Source: Candidatus Omnitrophota bacterium (GTDB taxonomy: Bacteria; Omnitrophota; Gorgyraeia; Zapsychrales; Fredricksoniimonadaceae). From it: a stretch of 64,000 bases of DNA. Where the stretch lies: the NCBI GenBank assembly GCA_903836515.1, contig CAILQW010000003.1:33529-97528 (forward strand). Direction: 5' to 3'. A program made the position numbers and the translations under genes. The notes under the pieces were generated by a model that was given only the letters and a program-made list of their open reading frames with translations, was not told the origin of the DNA and searched no databases. Positions 3,501 to 19,621 of the stretch are shown piece after piece. Every line of letters begins with the position of its first letter. The first letter of the stretch is position 1.

Positions 3501-3777
3501 CATCGGTCAAAGCCTGGCCCTTTAAATCCGAATTACCATTGTCCACAATGAAATCAAACAAAAGCGGGTCTTCAGGATGGATGGCCATGCCCTGCAGAAC
3601 AACCGGGGTGTAATTCCCGGACAGGCCGATCATCTCTCCCGGCTGGGGCAAATTGAACACCGCCTGGGCATAACTAGCCGGCACAAGGCTGGTCAGCATG
3701 AAGGCAGCCATGACGATCAGGCATAACGCCTTCCGGATAAATGATTTACAAGAGATCTCCATGCCTTGATCTACCAT
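502..3777 (-). CDS. large exported/membrane protein, function unknown (1091 aa from the ATG at 3777; the ORF track begins at a TTG at 3798)
   Basis: Single uninterrupted ORF. An AGGAGAG RBS sits 5 nt before the ATG at 3777. N-terminus MVDQGMEISCKSFIRKALCLIVMAAFMLTSLVPASYAQA resembles a signal peptide. Several predicted TM helices occur mid-protein and the C-terminal region is long and alpha-helical. No recognisable catalytic motif. The central ~830-2700 is AT-rich with distinct codon usage. Confidence 0.75.
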   Translation of the reverse strand: MVDQGMEISCKSFIRKALCLIVMAAFMLTSLVPASYAQAVFNLPQPGEMIGLSGNYTPVVLQGMAIHPEDPLLFDFIVDNGNSDLKGQALTDETTKLVKYFLAGLAVPEKELWVNLSPVEKDRIMADQLSHTDAGRDMLGQDYILKQITSTLMYPEKDLGRKFWDEIYSRVYTKFGNTQVPVDTFNKVWITPDVAEVYQHEGNAFVTKAHLKVMLEADYHAAQGIAAAVTDADNTQTVELARDVVREVILPVLEKEVNEGKNFAPLRQIFHSLILAGWYKNALKNSLLNQVYAGTNKVEGIDIAEKNAKAQVYAQYLQAYQKGVYNYVKEEFDRTTQETLPRKYFSGGLDCAKMMRPIVTRIMRGVKKNLDKYLVVPYKLFLTQVDKVRDQLADNMGQTLVGGITGLSDEAKSDLLVAMGSPLGVTTKLISFRTGFLGYLAWVLGAASLMGEAMFSVGTNIPVPDGAIVASAVLGVGIPIYTSLFLFYESAAKRLLLKGGATRIDQFRALWILKTIGANRTISDMWIKDRLTPDGIVVARLFLSLDQAEAVSTSDQVEKVALASDANMEQFHKDNLPVDVINSNNVRKLWKLAFITGAAVAVVGGGYYTATSGLERGPDTAIYLPLTLKIEAFIAGIPSLAGAIYLFKQMIAKNKVLSSNEGSVSLRVKGNQALGDLVKMGAWGVLKDLANNTAVDPYFAGIAARLVKDNAAEVTETPEHYLQIQREIKGITAAKWTDLMPYLINDDPYIKGRAQDRLHFFSPTLAILETLLRLSDLPLKQKEVVRAAWDQAEKTMEMVGNINRMVEDINSLKPQNLDELLSYLKNVDYGRITAIRDAVRARLKELFLARIALVEQIQKAGIAPTDVVELLKAYDAAGTVDKKEGDTFDPTGLTKVIIRSVMSKEERTKLGQMLSSTEGVRALLEEVVSKNKSGNSQAVFLRTLEELLKAKKGTKSWKLIHENLFQVVQKTLAAEALSQAIDPKLKSIAEKKGLTNPADDAGKVKGGIDLGQGDYLKVVGTDAAGMPQFDPAQLMQLQKDLRGIVPVPVGGPQPVNLRPLLGLDAHSGNDNFQVSQLDPAKVDADDAVNRG

Positions 3778-3842
3778 AACAACTCTCCTGTTCTGCAAGT
3801 TTCTTGTTATTTAGAATGTCAACGGATGTCTGACGATGCCAC

Positions 3843-3873
3843 AAATATATATTATAGATACCAGAAAGTCAAG
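3843..3873 (-). promoter_or_regulatory. putative sigma70-type promoter for the large exported protein gene
   Basis: On the minus strand: TTGACT, a 17-nt spacer, then TATATT, about 70-100 nt upstream of the ATG at 3777. Confidence 0.3.
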
Positions 3874-4371: not shown

Positions 4372-5022
4372 TCAGGAAGAACGGGGCTTGGAACGCCAGG
4401 GCAGGGGGACGCGCGGCTCCTGGCCGTTAAGAAGGCGGTGGATGTTGGGCCTGTGGCGCAGGACCACAAAGACACAAAAAAGGATGCTCAAAAGAACAAG
4501 GCTCAGGGGCGCGTTGAAAAAAACCATGAGGACCGGCAACAGCACGGCCGCCACCAGCGATGACAAAGAAACGATGGCGGTGATACCAAACGACACAAGC
4601 CAGCCCAGAACGCACAGACCCACGGCCGCGCGCGCTTCGGGGATCGCGATCGTGAACCCGATCAGGACGCCCAGCGTGGTAGCAATACCCTTCCCGCCCT
4701 TGAAATTCAGGAAACATGTCCAGTTATGCCCGCACACAGCAGCTAACGCCGCCGCCATGCGCCCCAGGGTGTAGGGCGCCAGAACCCCGGCCACCCCGGC
4801 CACGGCGATAATCCCTTTAATAATATCAATGATGAGCACCGCGGTCCCCGGCCCCTTGCCCAGGACACGGAAAGCATTGGTCGCGCCCACATTACCTGAA
4901 CCCTGCTGACGGATATCGATCCCTTTCAACACCCGTCCAAAAATATACGCGGTAGGGATGGACCCGATGAGATAACTCAAACTGAGGGTCGCGATAAATT
5001 TAACGGCTGTCATGGTGTCCAT
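4372..5022 (-). CDS. plsY: glycerol-3-phosphate acyltransferase PlsY
   Basis: SGNVGATNAFRVLG motif, multi-TM protein of 216 aa. A GGGAGG RBS sits 8 nt upstream. Neighbours pgsA. Confidence 0.9.
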   Translation of the reverse strand: MDTMTAVKFIATLSLSYLIGSIPTAYIFGRVLKGIDIRQQGSGNVGATNAFRVLGKGPGTAVLIIDIIKGIIAVAGVAGVLAPYTLGRMAAALAAVCGHNWTCFLNFKGGKGIATTLGVLIGFTIAIPEARAAVGLCVLGWLVSFGITAIVSLSSLVAAVLLPVLMVFFNAPLSLVLLSILFCVFVVLRHRPNIHRLLNGQEPRVPLPWRSKPRSS

Positions 5023-6433: not shown

Positions 6434-8224
6434 TTAAATTTTTAACGCCGCCAGGAACGCGGCCTGGGGAACTTCCACACGGCCGATCGATTTCATCTTC
6501 TTCTTGCCTTCCTTCTGCTTCTCCCAAAGTTTGCGCTTGCGCGAAATATCGCCGCCGTAACACTTGGCCGTGACATTCTTGCCCATGGACTTGATGCGCG
6601 AAGAGGCAATGACGCGCCCGTCGCACGTGGCCTGGATGCGGATCTCAAAGAGCTGGGCCGGGATGAGTTCCTTCAGCTTCTCGCAGAGCGCCGCCCCCTT
6701 TTCATACGCGCGGTCCTTGTGCACCAGGCACGCGAAAGCGTCGCAAGCTTCGTCGTTGATGAGGATATCGAGCTTGGCGATGGGCGCGGGCTTGTACCCG
6801 GTAAATTCGTAGTCGATCGACCCGTACCCGCGGGTGGCCGACTTGACCATGTCGTTAAAATCCACGATCACCTCCGCCAGCGGAATATCGTAAATGATGC
6901 GCATGCGGTCGGAGATGTACTCGCTCTTGATAAAAATACCGCGTTTGCGTTTGGCCAGTTCCATCACCGCGTCCATGGTGGTGACAGGGGTCATGACGGC
7001 GACCTTGAGATAAGGCTCCTCAACGGACTTAACATCGCTGGAACCCGGCAGCTGGGAGGGGTTCTCGATGTCGGTCATGACGCCGCTTTTGGTCACATAA
7101 CGGTACCCGACATTGGGTGTTGTCAACACAAGGCTCAGGTTATACTCGCGCTCCAGGCGCTCCTGCACCACTTCCATGTGCAAAAGGCCCAGAAAACCGC
7201 AGCGGAACCCGTGGCCGAAGGACTGGGATGTTTCAGGCTCGTAGGTGAAGCTGGGGTCGCTCAGGCGCAGTTTGTCGATGGCTTCGCGCAGTTCCATATA
7301 CTGGTCGGCCGTGACAGGATAGACCCCGCAAAAAACAAGAGGCTTGAGCAGACGGTACCCCTCCAGCGGCGCCTCACAAGGATTGGCCGCATCGGTGACC
7401 GTGTCGCCCACGCGCACTTCCTTGGGATCGCGCACATTGCAGGTGATATAACCGACCTCGCCCGCCCCAAAGCCCTTGGTCTTCACGTCAAAGGGGGTGA
7501 AATACCCCATCCCCTCGACCGTGTACTCACGGTTCATGTGCATAAGCCGGATGCGCGTCCCGATGCCGAGTTTGCCGTCGATGACGCGGATAAAAATGAT
7601 GATACCCTTGTAGACATCGTATTTCATGTCAAAAATGAGCGCCTTGAGCGGCCGGGCCTCCTCGCCGTAAGGCGCGGGAATAAACGCCACGATCTTCTCA
7701 AGGAGCTCGCCGATGAAAAGGCCCTCTTTCGCCGAAACCTTCTGGATGTCCTCTTCCCGGAACCCGAGCACCTCCTTGAACTGGCGCACGGCTTCATTCA
7801 GGTCGATGTTGGCGATGTCGATCTTGTTGATGACCGGCAGGATCTCGAGGTTGTTGTTGATGGCCAGGTAATAGTTCGCCACCGTCTGAGACTCGACCCC
7901 CTGCGACGCGTCGATGATGAGCAAAGCGCCCTCGCAGGCCTTGAGGGATTTCTCAACCTCGTAGGTGAAATCCACATGCCCAGGGGTATCGATGAGATTG
8001 AAAAGATACTCCTGGCCGTCTTTGGCCTTGTAGGTGAGGCGCACAGCCGATGCCTTGATGGTGATGCCGCGCTCGCGCTCCAGGTCCATGTCGTCCAAAA
8101 GCTGGTTCTTGAAACTGCGCTCGTCGATAGCGCCGCAGGAAAGCATGAGCCGGTCGGCAAGTGTGGACTTGCCGTGGTCAATGTGGGCGATGATGGAAAA
8201 ATTACGGATGCGTGACTGGTCCAT
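6434..8224 (-). CDS. lepA: elongation factor 4 (LepA)
   Basis: N-terminus MDQSRIRNFSIIAHIDHGKSTLADRL with GTPase motifs. 596 aa. Confidence 0.95.
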   Translation of the reverse strand: MDQSRIRNFSIIAHIDHGKSTLADRLMLSCGAIDERSFKNQLLDDMDLERERGITIKASAVRLTYKAKDGQEYLFNLIDTPGHVDFTYEVEKSLKACEGALLIIDASQGVESQTVANYYLAINNNLEILPVINKIDIANIDLNEAVRQFKEVLGFREEDIQKVSAKEGLFIGELLEKIVAFIPAPYGEEARPLKALIFDMKYDVYKGIIIFIRVIDGKLGIGTRIRLMHMNREYTVEGMGYFTPFDVKTKGFGAGEVGYITCNVRDPKEVRVGDTVTDAANPCEAPLEGYRLLKPLVFCGVYPVTADQYMELREAIDKLRLSDPSFTYEPETSQSFGHGFRCGFLGLLHMEVVQERLEREYNLSLVLTTPNVGYRYVTKSGVMTDIENPSQLPGSSDVKSVEEPYLKVAVMTPVTTMDAVMELAKRKRGIFIKSEYISDRMRIIYDIPLAEVIVDFNDMVKSATRGYGSIDYEFTGYKPAPIAKLDILINDEACDAFACLVHKDRAYEKGAALCEKLKELIPAQLFEIRIQATCDGRVIASSRIKSMGKNVTAKCYGGDISRKRKLWEKQKEGKKKMKSIGRVEVPQAAFLAALKI

Positions 8225-8225
8225 G

Positions 8226-8927
8226 CTAAACGCGGCCTGCCGGAGACCGGTCAGCCTCCTGTTTCCCTGTTATACGACGATAAAGTGCTTCCACGACCTG
8301 GTCAATATTCATGTGCGTTGAATCGATGAGCAAGGCATCATCCGCCCGGCGCAGGGGGCCAACGGCGCGGGTCATGTCCCTGTGGTCGCGCGCGGCCAGG
8401 TCTTCCCGGAGCGCTTTTTCGTCCACCGCCTGCCCTTTGGCCTTCAATTCATCGATGCGCCGCTGACAGCGGACGTCAAAATCAGCGTCAAGATAAAATT
8501 TGTACTTCGCCTGGGGGAACACCACGGTCCCCAGGTCCCGCCCGTCCCCCACCAAAGACCTCCTGGCGCCAAGCACGCGCTGCCACTCAACCATGATATG
8601 GCGGACCTCCGGCGTCCGGGCGGCGTAAAACGTATTGTTGGTGACATCCAGGGAACGTATCGCCTCGCTCACGTCCTCGCCGTCCAAGAGGACCTTGAGC
8701 TGTTGCCCGGGCTCATTGACAAGGTCGATCACGCTCATCCCGGCAAGCGCCGTGAGGGCCTGCGCGTCCTTAAGGTCGACGCCCTGGCGCAGGGCCTTGA
8801 GCGTGAGCGCCCTGTACATCGCCCCCGTGTCCATGAACGCGACACCGAGTTGCCTTGCCAGGACCCTGGCCACGGTGCTTTTCCCCGCACCCGCCGGCCC
8901 GTCAATCGTAACAACAAAATCAGGCAT
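8226..8927 (-). CDS. cmk: cytidylate kinase
   Basis: P-loop IDGPAGAGKSTVARVLA. 233 aa. Confidence 0.9.
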   Translation of the reverse strand: MPDFVVTIDGPAGAGKSTVARVLARQLGVAFMDTGAMYRALTLKALRQGVDLKDAQALTALAGMSVIDLVNEPGQQLKVLLDGEDVSEAIRSLDVTNNTFYAARTPEVRHIMVEWQRVLGARRSLVGDGRDLGTVVFPQAKYKFYLDADFDVRCQRRIDELKAKGQAVDEKALREDLAARDHRDMTRAVGPLRRADDALLIDSTHMNIDQVVEALYRRITGKQEADRSPAGRV

Positions 8928-9786
8928 GGCTCTTTTTCTCCAGCAACTCCCGTTTCGCCTTGGCCTGGTTGAAAAGTTGCACCAGAGCCGCTTCGTCCCG
9001 GTCGACGACCGCCTTGCGGATCTCGGCCAGGGATTTCACCGCCTCGTCAATGGCCTTGGCCACATGCCGATAATTGGAAGCACAGATATCCGCCCACATC
9101 TGGCTCGACGAACCCGCCACACGGGTGGTGTCCATCAAGCCGGCGGCGCCATAGACCAGAAAATCTTCGGGAATAGCCCGCACAAGGGCAAAAGCCATCA
9201 TGTGCGGCAAATGGCTCACATACGCCAGCGCCTCGTCATGCTGTAATGGTTCCATGGTCTTGACATGGGCGCCGAACAGTGTCCAGAGCTGTTTGACCTT
9301 GTCCCGGGCCGCGCGGCTGGTCTTGTCCGTGGGCGTCATGATGCAGACGGCCCCCTTGAAAAGGTCGGCATTCGCGTGGGCGACCCCGCTCTTTTCAGAA
9401 CCGGCCATCGGATGCGAACCGACAAAAAGCACATGCGGCGGAAAATGTTTCTGGGCCGCGTCAACGATTGCAGCCTTGGAACTGCCCACATCGGTCACCA
9501 CACAACCCCGGCGCAGGTGTTTGGAAATATCCTCGATATGCGCCAGGATCACCTTGACGGGCGCAGCCAGGATCACAAGGTCCGCGCCCTGGATGGCCTT
9601 GCGCGGATCCGTTGTGCCCTCGTCAATGATCTTCATGTCAACAGCCGTCTTGATCGAGGCTTCCTGGCGCGACATGCCAACAACCTGCGTGGCCAGCCCG
9701 TGTTTCTTGAGGGCCAGCGCGATGGACCCGCCGATCATGCCCGTCCCCAGAATGACCGCTTTTCTGAACATATGCCGATGGAACAT
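8920..9786 (-). CDS. tyrA: prephenate/arogenate dehydrogenase
   Basis: Rossmann motif [10 protein letters not shown]. 288 aa. Sits in an aromatic amino-acid gene cluster. Confidence 0.85.
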
Positions 9787-15809: not shown

Positions 15810-16207
15810 ACAGAAAGCAGGCCACATAAGCCGAGTTCTGTGCCCGGACGGCACGTGCATGCCGTCAGAGGACGACCATCCAACTTACTCCCGGAGTCGC
15901 CTCCGGGACTCTTGCGGCCTACCCGAGAATAATAACAAGGCGGATCGCCTCGCCTTCCTTTAAGACCTTGCGGCCCACGGAAGATCTTCTCCTATTTGGC
16001 CTTGCTCCACGCAGAGATGCCTCGTTTCACTCCCCACTGAAGGGACTCGTCTCTGTGGCTCTTTTCGTCCACTCCGGATCTGCCCGCCGTGAAAGCGCGC
16101 GCACACGGAATGTCCCCAGCATTACCTGGGTGCGTTATCCTTGGGAGCTCGGACTTTCCTCCCCCATGATGAATACATCGGGGCGGTCGTCTATGGCCGC
16201 TTTCTGC
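15810..16207 (-). ncRNA. rnpB: RNase P RNA (bacterial type A)
   Basis: Minus strand carries GGGAGGAAAGUCCGAGCUCC (P4 5' strand), GGAGCAAGGCCAAAUAGG, GGGUAGGCCGCAAGAG and ACAGAACUCGGCUUAU (P4 3' strand). P1 is formed by CAGAAAGCGGCCAUA / UGUGGCCUGCUUUCUG. Confidence 0.85.
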
Positions 16208-16608
16208 GAAATTTTTGCCTTGAGCGCCGATGTGGCCAGGAGATCAGCGTCCTTGTTCTCCTCCCGTGGCACCACCTTGCACTCCACCTTGCTGAAACCT
16301 TTCAAGAGATCCAGGGCTTGCGCATGCAGAGGCTTCATGTTGGGGTGCTTGACCTTGTAATCGCCCTTGAGCTGATAAAACAACAACTGGCTGTCGGTGC
16401 GCAGGCGGACATGTTCGGCCCCCAGGGCTTTTGCCTCACAAAGACCGCGGATGAATGCCCGGTATTCCGCGATATTATTGGTGGCCTCGCCGATGGCCTG
16501 CGAAACTTCCAGGACCTTGACACCGTCTTTGCGGATGACAACGCCGATCCCGGCAGGGCCAGGATTCCCGCTGCAGGCGCCATCCGAGAATATTTCAAAA
16601 ACATGCAT
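16135..16608 (-). CDS. rnhA: ribonuclease H-like protein (RNase HI family)
   Basis: Motifs IFSDGACSGNPGPAGIGVV, TNNIAEYRA. Start MHVFEIF at 16608 overlaps the upstream stop (TGATG). The last ~24 codons run into the rnpB 5' region. Confidence 0.8.
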   Translation of the reverse strand: MHVFEIFSDGACSGNPGPAGIGVVIRKDGVKVLEVSQAIGEATNNIAEYRAFIRGLCEAKALGAEHVRLRTDSQLLFYQLKGDYKVKHPNMKPLHAQALDLLKGFSKVECKVVPREENKDADLLATSALKAKISQKAAIDDRPDVFIMGEESPSSQG

Positions 16609-17333
16609 CAGAGCTCGCCCGCAAGATACAGGATCCGGGCACAGGTCTCGCAACGGACAACTTCATCGCACATCTTGAGTTTATTAAGCATCTGCGAGGT
16701 CTGCTTCATGTAGCATCCGCCGCAGGCATCATTCAGGATCGGGACCATGGCCAGGCCCATGCGGTTTTCCACCAGGCGCTCGTACATCGCGAGCGTGACC
16801 GCATCGATCCCTTCACAGGCCACGTTACGCTCCGCCTCAAAGGTCGCCACCTTGTCCTGCAAATCCTTGAGCAGGGCATCTACTTTTTGCTTCTCGGCAA
16901 GGTATTTGCTTTCTTCCGCATCCACCACCGTTTTTTCACGGGACATTTCTTCCGTCACCTTGGTGGTCTCGTCAAAGAAACGCAGGATCTCATCTTCAAG
17001 GGCCGACTGGTCGGCTTTCATGTTCTCGATCTCAAAAAGCTTGGCCTGGTATTCCCTGTTGGTCTTGAGGGTCATCAAGACTGTATTGGCCTTGACGATC
17101 TCCTGCTCTTTGGACTTAAGGTCAAGTTCCTTGGCCTTGCGGGAACGTTCCAGGTCAAAAAGACGCGTTTCAAGCTCGCGGTAACGCGTCTGCTTCTTTT
17201 CAAACACGGACTTCACGTCATCCAGCAGAGCCGGTTTGGCCTTGATCTCGCGCTTGAACTCATAGACCTCAGCATCGATCTTCTGCAGTGCAACGAGTTT
17301 TCTTAAAAGGTCTTTCACATCCTTGCCAGCCAC
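16608..17333 (-). CDS. C4-type zinc-ribbon domain protein (COG1579/DUF164 family)
   Basis: Long coiled-coil region plus C-terminal CGGC...CETC zinc ribbon. A GTG start at 17333 has GAAAGG 7-8 nt upstream. The ORF-track GTG at 17384 lies inside the tRNA-Val trailer duplication, so it is probably not the start. Confidence 0.75.
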   Translation of the reverse strand: MAGKDVKDLLRKLVALQKIDAEVYEFKREIKAKPALLDDVKSVFEKKQTRYRELETRLFDLERSRKAKELDLKSKEQEIVKANTVLMTLKTNREYQAKLFEIENMKADQSALEDEILRFFDETTKVTEEMSREKTVVDAEESKYLAEKQKVDALLKDLQDKVATFEAERNVACEGIDAVTLAMYERLVENRMGLAMVPILNDACGGCYMKQTSQMLNKLKMCDEVVRCETCARILYLAGEL

Positions 17334-17371
17334 AACATGCCTTTCTATTAAGATCGAAAAACTTTTGAAGC

Positions 17372-17419
17372 CCTTCTGAATCACTTACTCAAAAAATCTG
17401 GTGGACGCAGAAGGACTTG
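17372..17419 (-). repeat. 48-nt direct-repeat copy of the tRNA-Val 3' end plus trailer
   Basis: Near-identical to 17511-17558 (tRNA-Val T-loop 3' half, acceptor 3' strand, CCA and 28 nt of trailer). Confidence 0.7.
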
Positions 17420-17510
17420 GCGCCCTCACGCCCTGCGGGCTTCGGGTCGGCCATTCGGCCCGCCTCAAGCATCCTCCTATGCGTCGGATGCAGCGGGCCT
17501 CAAATCAAGT
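17420..17510 (-). repeat. ~90-nt GC-rich structured element, copy 1 (tRNA-Val-associated)
   Basis: About 96% identical to copy 2 (17699-17788). Internal nested hairpins GGCCCGC/GCGGGCC and GCATCC/GGATGC. Flanked by the tRNA 3'-end direct repeat and preceded (minus strand) by an inverted T-arm fragment CAGAAGGACTT. Confidence 0.65.
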
Positions 17511-17537
17511 CCTTCTGAATCACTTACTCAAAAAATC

Positions 17538-17614
17538 TGGTGGACGCAGAAGGACTTGAACCTTCGACCTCTGCCATGTGAGGGCAGCGCTCTAACCAGC
17601 TGAGCTATGCGTCC
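17538..17614 (-). tRNA. tRNA-Val (anticodon CAC)
   Basis: GGACGCATAGCTCAGCTGGTTAGAGCGCTGCCCTCACATGGCAGAGGTCGAAGGTTCAAGTCCTTCTGCGTCCACCA. Cloverleaf fits, anticodon loop CTCACAT, CCA is encoded. Confidence 0.9.
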
Positions 17615-17680
17615 GTGATATATCAATCAATGCAGAGCCGTTGCACGCAACGGCTCTACCACACCAACCAAATAATAAAA

Positions 17681-17698
17681 CTGGGCCCGCCAGGACTC
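17681..17698 (-). repeat. 18-nt direct-repeat copy of the tRNA-Ile2 3' end
   Basis: ctgggcccgccaggactc is identical to 17818-17835 (tRNA-Ile2 T-loop 3' half, acceptor 3' strand and discriminator). Confidence 0.65.
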
Positions 17699-17788
17699 GG
17701 CGCCCTCACGCCCTGCGGGCTTCGGGTCGGCCACTCGGCCCGCCTCAAGCATCCTCCTATGCGTCGGATGCAGCGGGCCTCAAGTCTC
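17699..17788 (-). repeat. ~90-nt GC-rich structured element, copy 2 (tRNA-Ile2-associated)
   Basis: Same element as 17420-17510 with 2-3 substitutions. Preceded (minus strand) by a trailer and an inverted T-stem fragment GCCAGGAC. Confidence 0.65.
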
Positions 17789-17818
17789 GTCCTGGCAAAA
17801 ACTTATTTAAAAAATTAC

Positions 17819-17892
17819 TGGGCCCGCCAGGACTCGAACCCGGGACCAAGAGATTATGAGTCTCCTGCTCTAACCGACTGAGCTACAGGCCC
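17819..17892 (-). tRNA. tRNA with CAU anticodon, most like tRNA-Ile2 (lysidine), alternatively elongator Met
   Basis: GGGCCTGTAGCTCAGTCGGTTAGAGCAGGAGACTCATAATCTCTTGGTCCCGGGTTCGAGTCCTGGCGGGCCCA. Anticodon loop CTCATAA, variable loop TTGGTC as in ileX-type tRNAs. CCA is not encoded. Confidence 0.85.
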
Positions 17893-17922: not shown

Positions 17923-17950
17923 TCCGAGATGAAAGAGAATATCACAAGGG
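17923..17950 (-). promoter_or_regulatory. putative sigma70 promoter for the tRNA-Ile2/tRNA-Val transcript
   Basis: On the minus strand: TTGAAA, a 17-nt spacer, then TATTCT, about 30 nt upstream of the tRNA 5' end. Confidence 0.3.
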
Positions 17951-17972
17951 ATAAATATTTTCAACTTATTAA

Positions 17973-18037: not shown

Positions 18038-19621
18038 TCAAATGACATAATCTTCCTTGGATGACATATCCAGGAACATCTTGATCCGGCGCGAACGCGT
18101 GGGATGACGCAGCTTCCGCAGGGCCTTGGATTCAATCTGGCGTACACGTTCACGGGTCACATTGAATTCTGCACCGACCTCTTCCAGGGTCCGGCTGGTG
18201 CCGTCAACAATGCCGAAACGCAGCTCCAGGATCTTGCGCTCGCGCTCATCGAGGGTATCCAGGACCGCCTGGATCTCATCCTTGAGCATGGAATGCAGGG
18301 TGGCATTCGCCGGCGAAATAGCCTTCTTGTCCTCGATAAAATCCCCGAAATGCGTGTCCCCCTCATCGCCGATGGGCGTCTGCAGGGAGATGGGCACCTG
18401 GGATATCTTCATGATCTCCTTGACCTTGCTGACCGGGATCTTCATCTGCTTGGCGATCTCCTGGGCAGCCGGCTCGCGGCCGTTCTCCTGGACAAAAAGA
18501 CGGGAGATACGGATGATCTTGTTGATGGTCTCGGTCATATGCACCGGGATGCGGATCGTGCGCGCCTGGTCCGCGATAGAGCGGGTGATCGCCTGGCGGA
18601 TCCACCATGTGGCGTAGGTCGAGAACTTGTAACCGCGTTTGTATTCAAACTTCTCCACCGCGCGGATAAGGCCCATGTTGCCTTCCTGGATCAAATCCAG
18701 GAACGACAAACCGCGGTTGATGTATTTCTTGGCGATCGATACCACAAGACGCAGGTTGGCTTCCACAAGCTTCTTCTTGGTCTTGTTGAACTGCGACTGG
18801 CGCATCCGGATGACACGCAGCTGCTCGCGCACACGGTCCACCGGCTCGCCCAGCTCCTTGAGGAGCCTGCGGCGGTCTTCTTCCGTCTGCTTCTTGGGCA
18901 CATCGGTCTTTTTGGCCGCCAGCAGTCTGTCGGCGCGGTGCAGGCGGTAAAGGATCTCGTCGATACGGCCGATGATCTGTTCATTGACAGAAGCCGTCAA
19001 CTTGAAATCCGCCACACAGGCAATGGCGTCCTCGATCTTTTTGGCGTGACGGGCCTTGTCCAGGGTGCGCTTCAAGTCCTTTAAAAGCGTAGGCCGGCGT
19101 TCAAGCTCGTCCTTGACCACATCCTCGACGCTGATCTCTTCCTTGAGCGCCCGTTCAATGGTGTTCATGGCCTCCAGGCGGGCGTAAGCGTTCACAAAAA
19201 GCGCTTCGGCAAACTTGTTCTCCGCCTCTTCGATGCGTTTGGCCAGGAAGATCTCCTCTTCACGCGTCAACAGGGAGATCGACCCCATCTGTTTTAAATA
19301 CATCTTGACCGGGTCATCCAGCGGGATGAACTTCTCGGCATAGCCTTCTTCGTCGGCATTTTCGTCCGCGGGGCGCTTGACCTGGTCGCGGGCATCCTCC
19401 GCCGAAGCCTCGGCATCGACCTCTTCCTCTTCGCCGGAATCAACGACCCTGATCCCCTTGCCGTCAAGGATCTCGAACACCTGGTCGATATCTTCCGAGG
19501 AATCAAGGGAATCGGAAAGGGTGTCGTTGACCTCGTCGTAGGTCAAAAACCCTTTCTTCTTGCCGGACGCCACGAGCTTTTCAAGATCGTGCTGAAAATC
19601 CTTTTCCTTGTCTTCCTTCAT
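18038..19621 (-). CDS. rpoD: RNA polymerase sigma factor RpoD (sigma-70)
   Basis: Conserved regions 2-4 ([37 protein letters not shown]..). ATG at 19621 with a GGGTGAGG RBS. The ORF-track start at 19633 is GTG. Confidence 0.95.

Follow-up and report, generated by a model that had tools for sequence, protein, structure and literature searches.

Introduction

Two neighbouring tRNA genes of a Candidatus Omnitrophota bacterium, one with a CAT anticodon and one for valine, are each followed by almost the same GC-rich element and by a second copy of their own 3' end, which raises the question whether these elements are DNA that inserted next to tRNA genes or RNA that belongs to the tRNA transcripts. 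The genes are located in a stretch of 64,000 nucleotides (nt) of contig CAILQW010000003.1 (GenBank assembly GCA_903836515.1, positions 33,529 to 97,528), hereafter the window, in which all coordinates below are counted from the first letter. An initial annotation had put forward a miniature element that targets tRNA T-loops and 3' ends in the manner of tRNA-targeting integrases and, as an alternative, a conserved tRNA-linked small RNA or processing module.

This study describes the window elements as members of a tRNA-linked structured RNA family that occurs across Candidatus Omnitrophota and had not been catalogued before. The architecture of the units, their linkage to tRNA genes, the covariation of their stems, the tailoring of two of their segments to the adjacent tRNA, their tandem arrays, their patchy presence among relatives and the existence of mosaic copies were all observed directly. 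The explanation favoured here, with a confidence somewhat above even, is a co-transcribed structured RNA module behind tRNA genes that evolves by recombination between repeats, and not by integrase or transposon insertion.

Results

Architecture of the two units in the window

Read in the direction of the tRNA genes, both units begin 1 nt 3' of their tRNA and consist of an AU-rich linker of 20-22 nt, a segment designated anti-T that is the reverse complement of the T-loop/T-stem 3' strand of the unit's own tRNA (13 nt in the Val-linked unit, 8 nt in the unit behind tRNA-CAT, for which the label Ile2 is plausible and is used below), a GC-rich core, and a copy of the stretch of tRNA that starts at C56 and ends at the 3' terminus (Table 1). 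The two cores have one difference across the 87 nt common to both, and the repeat around them extends over 102 nt with 95% identity, including an identical stretch of 49 nt; nothing comparable was obtained in 100 shuffles. The direct repeat of the Val-linked unit measures 52 nt with 1 mismatch (17368-17419 and 17507-17558) and is composed of 21 nt of tRNA 3' end, the 20-nt linker and 11 nt of a degenerate anti-T; the truncated second unit that starts after the Val copy has the same arrangement in the relative L016. The direct repeat of the Ile2-linked unit is exact over 20 nt (17680-17699 and 17817-17836). Complementarity of the Val anti-T extends over 13 nt to the real tRNA-Val (U55-G67) and over 12 nt to the copy. 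Repeat comparison and the covariance model R1, introduced below, detected no further copies of the module in the window.

All that the initial annotation had noted about this sequence layout was borne out, namely the near-identical GC-rich element 3' of two tRNA genes, the direct repeats of each unit's own tRNA 3' end, the inverted T-arm segments, which measure 12-13 nt behind tRNA-Val and 8 nt behind tRNA-Ile2, and the common T-loop start of the duplicated segments, which lies at C56 in both. The nested hairpins that it had described are likewise predicted by folding, each unit forming a three-way junction (z = -4.6 and -3.6).

A tRNA-linked family in Candidatus Omnitrophota

Exact patterns of 21-27 nt taken from the cores returned nothing from viral, genome and metagenome collections, the last of which excludes the Joint Genome Institute (JGI) contigs L007 and L008 that contain the pattern, so that a negative from it does not prove absence; these scans were empty because each pattern covered a variable loop base. 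A degenerate pattern based on the positions common to long and short cores, TGGCCGACCCGA-N(0-20)-AGGGCGCCRA, detected at least 119 stretches in metagenome contigs. A minority of the matches were chance occurrences in coding DNA, and all others keep one order of parts: anti-T, junction AA-NN-GAGC, hairpin H1, GCGRN, a variable hairpin between UGGCCGACCCGA and GAGGGCGCC, and the tRNA 3' end from C56.

The covariance model R1, built from 49 family sequences, recognised the Val-linked unit (17407-17518, 80.4 bits) and the Ile2-linked unit (17687-17798, 72.1 bits), and gave 132 matches at E < 1e-3 in the fetched contigs, some of them without the exact motif. Among these, 79 begin 4-60 nt (median about 13) 3' of a tRNA gene on the same strand, with 15 isotypes represented, 19 come after another unit and thereby form tandem arrays, and 15 sit at the start of a contig; about half of the other 19 are located 63-166 nt from a tRNA. 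Counting the copies thus revealed neither a single local pair nor a lack of tRNA linkage in the other copies. Tandem arrays were encountered in L033, L041, L053, L104, L114, L144 and other contigs, and in a four-tRNA operon of L033 a unit follows every tRNA, with two units behind the last. In the same operon a promoter-like repeat, TTGACACTCTGACAATG...GTAAAGTT, is located after the first and the last module (about 4700-4840 and 3760-3870, minus strand).

Where contig proteins fall in named clusters, these are Omnitrophota (L033, L058, L075), and one contig of the commonest subtype finds its best named relatives in Omnitrophica and Ratteibacteria, with an identity of about 65-70%. No family match was obtained among 2.9 million viral contigs, and six-frame peptides translated from the core had no match in a set of 5.8 billion proteins. 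Rfam 15 has no family over the cores at gathering or relaxed thresholds (E <= 10), the only families at threshold in the window being tRNA and RNase P RNA, and full-text searching of the literature, including the motif string, gave no description of this family.

Folded structure and covariation

Comparison of the family sequences predicts a core that is a three-way junction with near-invariant junction bases and covarying stems. In the seed alignment 89% of the cells at 25 pairs are paired, compared to 76% in column shuffles and about 42% with slid partners, and 199 cells carry double changes versus 72 in the shuffles. The alignment derived from the model agrees with the seed and shows a few compensatory changes even in P3, and across both alignments 89-92% of the cells are paired, with 199-275 double-change cells versus 72-94 after shuffling. 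Approximately 30 junction and P3 positions are invariant among diverse Omnitrophota contigs while the stems covary, and length variation is restricted to the tips of H1 and P3 (e.g., L033 unit E5 and L092). The motif spans 22 and 30-42 nt, and the P3 insert changes in length by non-multiples of three, which argues that the unit is not coding; the excess of G-U (54) over A-C (31) pairs favours the tRNA-sense strand.

The flanks of H1 (G-A-G-C...G-C-G-R, columns 22-25 and 82-85 of alignment A2) could form two Watson-Crick and tandem G-A pairs beside a 4-nt bulge, position 85 being G in 20 of the 49 sequences, an arrangement that would resemble a kink-turn-type three-way junction. The H1 loop of the Val core (17480-17488, minus strand) reads GACGCAUAG, which equals nucleotides 2-10 of tRNA-Val and complements the acceptor 3' strand in the copy (17399-17410, minus strand), by which a pseudoknot might be formed. 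In the Ile2 unit no match between H1 loop and tRNA is present, although the outer H1 stem strand GCGGGCC is identical to part of the Ile2 copy.

Several other identities of the element were considered and rejected. An origin by tandem duplication of the segment that extends from the tRNA-Val T-loop into the 5' untranslated region of the zinc-ribbon gene rested on the resemblance of the H1 loop AUAGGAGG to AAUAGAAAGG and on the identity of GACGCAUAG with the tRNA-Val nucleotides given above, and was dropped because the family was found behind 15 tRNA types. A degenerate tRNA pseudogene is discounted, as no tRNA model matched the core at E <= 10, and sequence inspection and frame analysis fitted neither a hammerhead-like junction, nor a T-box-like UGGN, nor a small open reading frame (ORF; M-A-D-P...).

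The tRNA-end copy and its clamp

In most units the copy begins at C56 and stops no more than about 2 nt from where the tRNA gene ends, and it carries CCA only where the tRNA gene encodes CCA, from which it follows that the copy derives from the gene or the primary transcript and not from the mature tRNA. Copying by tRNA-primed reverse transcription of mature tRNA is ruled out, since CCA is absent wherever the gene lacks it. Decayed copies exist, such as that of unit E3 in L033 with two transitions, and in L057, L074 and L132 the acceptor part of the copy downstream of P1 is replaced by a hairpin, CCUGUCGGUGCGAAGAAUAACGAGCACCGUAUGACAGG, a variant of the tRNA-tail rule.

Positions 56-65 of the copy pair with the anti-T and thereby close the junction. 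This pairing ends at the border of T-stem and acceptor, so that within the unit nothing pairs with the acceptor 3' strand of the copy, whose sole complement is the 5' end of the tRNA. The specificity of this clamp was assessed in 69 elements picked solely because they have the P3 motif and a tRNA upstream. Exact complements of at least 7 nt between the element's own upstream segment and the tRNA-specific part of the copy were present in 25 of them, compared to a mean of 4.0 and a maximum of 11 in 200 permutations of the partners; the anti-T is tailored to its own tRNA. The relative L021 illustrates this tailoring, as its T-stem reads CCAGG where the window has CCUGG and both copy and anti-T follow (GCCUGGAC versus GCCAGGAC), its anti-T GCCTGGAC co-varying with its own tRNA and copy.

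Presence, loss and recombination in relatives

Syntenic loci of 11 related genomes were compared. Both sites are empty in the closest relative (L009/L015, 81% protein identity) and likewise in L014, L022 and L025, and R1 had no match in the related loci that look empty. In L016 (77%) a short-core variant is located behind tRNA-Val, with entirely different H1 stems, the loop GACGAAUAGGA, the P3 base and the 13-nt anti-T retained, and a repeat of 79 nt. In L021 (68%) a long core with few loop or compensated changes is located behind tRNA-CAT; compared to the window, the element is 96% conserved, whereas the neighbouring protein is 68% identical and the flanking spacer cannot be aligned.

The first 10 nt of the L018 spacer equal the window trailer after the copy, as expected for loss (or gain) of a unit exactly at the repeats. 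The borders of the empty sites in L009 lie in T-runs and off the repeat borders, which suggests imprecise deletion rather than clean excision. L004 was rejected as an empty allele. Its first 60 nt are the spacer of the L018 species and the sequence that follows is 100% identical to the window from tRNA-Val onward, so that the contig is probably a chimera of metagenome assembly, with the join at the tRNA gene that both parts have in common. The contigs L003 and L010-L012 break inside this repeat region. Signs of recombination comprise tandem arrays whose linkers are identical, incomplete terminal units in the window and in L016, precise and imprecise losses, and the mosaic unit E3 of L033, which combines H1 of unit E2 with P3 of unit E1. 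Gene conversion can explain why the window cores, only 280 nt apart, are 99% identical, and the recent insertion suggested by the initial annotation is therefore not required.

Other sequences occupy this region in some relatives. A 'type B' trailer behind tRNA-Val in L018 (9705-10000), also encountered in L017, L019, L021 and L023, contains a long stem of CCACCAUUUUG with CAAAAUGGUG (the tRNA CCA end) and an inner hairpin, followed by a 49-nt unit containing CUGGCCGAGCUCCGCGAGGGCAG that is repeated 3.9 times according to Tandem Repeats Finder (TRF); R1 gives no match there. Between tRNA-CAT and tRNA-Val of L013 (9713-9875) a GC-rich insert with three hairpins is present, of which the GUCCUG...CCAGGAC segments match the T-stem of the window's tRNA and not that of L013 itself, and which may be a decayed or unrelated module. 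L017 (75% relative) encodes two ORFs of 573 and 124 amino acids (aa) without Pfam match between rpoD and the tRNA pair (about 7339-9450).

A predicted alternative fold of the transcript

The anti-T can pair with the 3' half of the real tRNA or with the copy, so that two competing folds of the transcript would be expected. In the alternative, or swapped, fold as modelled, the distal copy serves as the partner of the 5' strands of the tRNA acceptor and T-stem, and the anti-T takes up the 3' half of the real tRNA. With a nearest-neighbour model the swapped fold was predicted to be the more stable in all 57 tRNA-plus-unit transcripts (mean difference -6.15 kcal/mol) and to be the unconstrained minimum in 54 of them, and both window units as well as E. 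coli tyrV plus RtT are predicted to swap. This bias originates largely from the A-A that follows the anti-T, which can pair with U55-U54 of the real tRNA and not with the GC preceding the copy. The modelling thus predicts a design that is inherently bistable.

Comparison with E. coli tRNA-linked repeats

In E. coli, tRNA-linked repeats (TLRs) comprise 22 units at ten loci, without known function, and finish with 18-19 bp in which they are identical to the 3' end of whichever tRNA or rRNA gene lies upstream (PMC8144298). They include the RtT RNA of the tyrT operon (RF00391; Egan and Landy 1978, Rudd 1999, as summarised in PMC8144298), and RtT and RrB RNAs are reported to be processed from operon transcripts near the repeated end (PMC8144298). 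Like these repeats, the Omnitrophota units are located directly behind a tRNA (TLRs also behind rRNA), on the same strand and in the same operon, end in a copy of the upstream gene's 3' end of 18-21 nt, occur as one to several tandem units, and serve different tRNAs with one repeat family. The E. coli tyrT units also have an anti-T clamp (GGGGAAGGAU / AUCCUUCCCC, 10 bp) and a free acceptor-CCA tail (CACCACCA), and share with the family the unit span of 111 nt and the predicted swapped fold.

The motif GACCCGAAGGGCG / CGAAGCNCGCAG is common to E. coli RtT and the family, and local similarity exceeded that of shuffles by one measure (mean of the top 10, 1/200) and not by the other (best score, 13/200). 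RF00391 scores 133-138 bits on four E. coli units and has no match on the window region (E <= 10) or on 13 family loci (E <= 1), whereas R1 scores RtT at 8-9 bits (E about 0.1-0.2) through the clamp alone; the E. coli metT operon, taken as a second TLR example, had no RtT match. Moreover, the E. coli copy starts at A58 and the Omnitrophota copy at C56, small hairpins are more numerous within the E. coli units, where the invariant UGGCCGACCCGA...GAGGGCGCC hairpin beside the copy is missing, and the hosts belong to different phyla. Because of the misses in both directions and the mixed shuffle test, the element is filed as a sequence-distinct module of TLR architecture, homology to RtT being unproven.

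Two other systems invite comparison. Attachment (att) sites of islands and prophages that integrate at tRNA genes through tyrosine integrases of the T-loop class share with the family the direct repeat of a tRNA 3' end from the T-loop and the presence or absence among relatives; the module differs from these in having no integrase and cargo, one core with 15 isotypes, an inverted anti-T and RNA-type covariation. The 3' external transcribed spacer (3'ETS) RNAs, e.g., 3'ETS-leuZ (cited in PMC8144298), are likewise stable or functional RNAs from the trailer of a tRNA precursor, a mode of production that is presumed for the present family; the known examples differ in being short, lineage-specific sponges without tRNA-end copy or conserved junction.

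Locus layout and transcription

On the minus strand of the window the genes are ordered dnaG, rpoD, tRNA-CAT, unit, tRNA-Val, unit, zinc-ribbon gene, RNase HI-like gene, RNase P RNA, yebC and ruvC (Table 1). A promoter-like site is located upstream of tRNA-CAT, and the scan for intrinsic terminators found none except a weak match that overlaps the 3' end of tRNA-CAT. On these grounds a single transcription unit probably runs through both tRNAs and both modules, which would place the units in the transcript of the tRNAs. The gene table for 10 kb on either side lists no recombinase, transposase or reverse transcriptase; its entries include HTH_17, SMC, CvpA, DnaG, RpoD, zinc ribbon, RNase H, YebC, RuvC and RuvA. 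The window sequence is identical to contigs L001, L007 and L008 of the European Nucleotide Archive (ENA) and JGI metagenomes, and homologues of the zinc-ribbon protein carry the name Candidatus Omnitrophota.

Table 1. Features of the tRNA-module region of the window, all on the minus strand, in the direction of transcription
Feature	Position	Strand	Remarks
rpoD	18038-19621	-	
Promoter-like site 5' of tRNA-CAT, TTGAAA-17-TATTCT with TG	17936-17964	-	consensus scan
tRNA with CAT anticodon, CCA not encoded	17819-17892	-	'Met' according to ARAGORN; Ile2-type according to the initial annotation
AU-rich linker, Ile2-linked unit	17797-17818	-	homologous to the Val linker and the L021 linker
Anti-T GCCAGGAC, Ile2-linked unit	17789-17796	-	complementary to the T-stem 3' strand of tRNA-CAT and of the copy
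Core, Ile2-linked unit	17700-17788	-	junction, H1 17737-17779, junction GAGU, P3 17700-17733
tRNA-CAT 3'-end copy, C56 to discriminator + 2 nt	17680-17699	-	direct repeat
tRNA-Val (CAC), CCA encoded	17538-17614	-	
AU-rich linker, Val-linked unit	17518-17537	-	
Anti-T CAGAAGGACUUGA, Val-linked unit	17505-17517	-	inverted repeats
Core, Val-linked unit	17420-17504	-	H1 17457-17499, P3 17420-17453
tRNA-Val 3'-end copy, C56 to CCA, 21 nt	17399-17419	-	
Second Val linker copy and degenerate anti-T, start of truncated second unit	17368-17398	-	direct and inverted repeat
Zinc-ribbon gene, CT398-type	16608-17333	-	

The duplicated Val trailer had been proposed to supply the first codons of the zinc-ribbon gene. 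The longest ORF does start within this trailer, with GTG at 17384, but gene callers place the start on the identical contigs at GTG 17333, and full-length homologues mostly measure 241 aa (a few 236-275), as expected from that position; the trailer therefore supplies no real codons. The RNase P RNA (class A, 143 bits) is encoded at 15810-16203 (minus strand), about 1.2 kb downstream of the tRNA-module cluster and in the same orientation. It comes after the zinc-ribbon gene and the RNase HI-like gene, a synteny that relatives retain whether or not they have the modules.

Discussion

According to the mechanism proposed here, the unit would be transcribed together with its tRNA on the tRNA strand, most likely in the same primary transcript. 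The anti-T and positions 56-65 of the copy would close the junction, leaving the acceptor 3' strand (plus CCA, if encoded) as a single-stranded tRNA-like tail, and the unit would be cut from the pre-tRNA by tRNA 3'-end enzymes to yield a compact, stable RNA, a mode of release that is suggested by the analogous processing of the E. coli RtT and RrB RNAs from operon transcripts. Without a dedicated recombinase, the family may spread, expand, shrink and homogenise through unequal crossing-over, deletion and gene conversion, for which the repeated tRNA ends, and one core with another, would serve as recombination sites. As for the cellular role, our best guess is that the module acts in the processing or folding of tRNA transcripts. 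The small-RNA or processing-module alternative of the initial annotation fits the 132 members, their tRNA linkage, the covariation, the invariant junction and the insertions at hairpin tips.

A number of points weigh against this explanation. The family members are known here from sequence and predicted folding, and the role of even the E. coli analogue is not established. Simple recombination leaves unexplained how a tRNA first gained an anti-T and a copy, and the patchy presence in close relatives together with the 99% core identity is also compatible with recent mobility. No tRNA is within reach of about 10 of the 132 R1 matches. Moreover, model-based alignments are biased towards the modelled structure, and the outer pairs of P3 are invariant, partly because the search pattern imposed them, and hence carry no structural information.

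Recent mobility would be expected if the units were miniature, non-autonomous DNA inserted by a tRNA-targeting integrase or transposase encoded elsewhere, which cuts at the T-loop and duplicates the 3' end. The repeat from T-loop to tRNA end resembles that of integrase att sites, the element is absent at the matching sites of L009/L015, L014, L022 and L025, the L018 spacer equals the post-copy trailer of the window as an empty site would, and near-identical cores in one genome and tandem arrays are readily accommodated. The T-loop start and the presence or absence in relatives lend the initial proposal of such an element superficial support. Against it, no recombinase is encoded within 10 kb and the viral contigs lack the family, the 3' ends of 15 tRNA isotypes accompany a single core type, which no single attP can explain, and target duplication cannot yield an inverted anti-T matched to each tRNA. 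Covariation of stems and insertions at hairpin tips are unexpected for double-stranded recombination sites, and the empty sites of L009, off the repeat borders, look like T-run deletions. Of the features by which integrase elements are recognised, the direct repeat that starts in a tRNA loop is present, whereas an adjacent integrase and attP specificity for one tRNA were not found, and neither were the constant terminal inverted repeats and fixed-length target duplications of miniature inverted-repeat transposable elements (MITEs) and transposons; the inverted arms are tRNA-derived and differ between copies, and the repeats are as long as the tRNA tail, 18-22 nt, and in partial arrays measure 52-79 nt. 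Insertion of this kind is accordingly thought unlikely. A slightly larger, still small, chance is given to a by-product, selfish or neutral, of tRNA-operon recombination, in which unequal crossing-over and gene conversion seeded at the conserved T-loop produce units without function, the fold persisting only since its compactness does no harm to the maturation of the tRNA. Arrays, partial units, decayed copies, mosaics and frequent loss in relatives agree with such a by-product, as does the fact that E. coli TLRs are still without a demonstrated function (PMC8144298); against it stand the approximately 30 invariant junction and P3 positions beside covarying stems, the conservation of the orthologous element in L021 (96%) next to a protein of 68% identity and unalignable flanks, and the maintained complementarity of the anti-T.

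Function could also be sought in the RNA itself. A catalytic or guide RNA, i.e., a new self-cleaving ribozyme by which transcripts of tRNA operons are cut, or a scaffold with a 3' guide for an RNA-guided protein that reads the tRNA gene next to GGTT, would account for a three-way junction whose junction bases are invariant and whose arms vary, for tandem units, which are typical of ribozyme-bearing repeats, and for a variable 3' segment that comes after GGTT in the target tRNA. Such an RNA is nevertheless very improbable here, as no Rfam 15 ribozyme or guide family matched at E <= 10, the junction does not fit the hammerhead core on inspection of the sequence, no nuclease gene is adjacent, the anti-T would sequester half of the would-be guide, and every host tRNA gene would be targeted. 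A cis-acting conformational switch or cognate-tRNA-binding RNA, in which the tRNA's own 3' half has competitors in the anti-T and the distal copy, is given a low probability, slightly above that of the inserted miniature element. The outcome would be either a normal tRNA and a closed junction, or a tRNA body trapped on the distal copy, and a factor binding the junction would set the balance, by which tRNA maturation is controlled or an unstable tRNA captured. Apart from the predicted stability of the swapped fold, the A-A after the anti-T, for which only U55-U54 of the real tRNA is a complement, and the acceptor strand of the copy, which has no partner other than the tRNA 5' end, speak for such a switch. 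The energy model, however, omits tertiary contacts of the tRNA, base modifications and the order of transcription, in which the tRNA folds first; conservation of the A-A may serve the junction itself, and no ligand or protein is known for the junction. In its most far-reaching form, a three-part switch of tRNA 3' half, anti-T and distal copy would gate tRNA maturation or capture via a junction binder, with the E. coli TLR/RtT units as the same device, a speculation that we hold to be about as improbable as the neutral by-product. If true, this switch would be an old and widespread layer of tRNA-specific control built into tRNA operons.

For the co-transcribed RNA module favoured here, the consequences lie closer at hand. 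TLRs have stood without explanation in E. coli since 1978 and had looked like an enterobacterial curiosity, and the same architecture is now found to be abundant in a distant, uncultured phylum. The spacers of tRNA operons can thus contain conserved RNA machinery that is overlooked by standard annotation and by Rfam, and a T-loop-anchored repeat behind a tRNA gene is not always the scar of an integrase. The Omnitrophota family offers a structural model and many natural variants with which a processing signal, a stable RNA or a switch can be tested.

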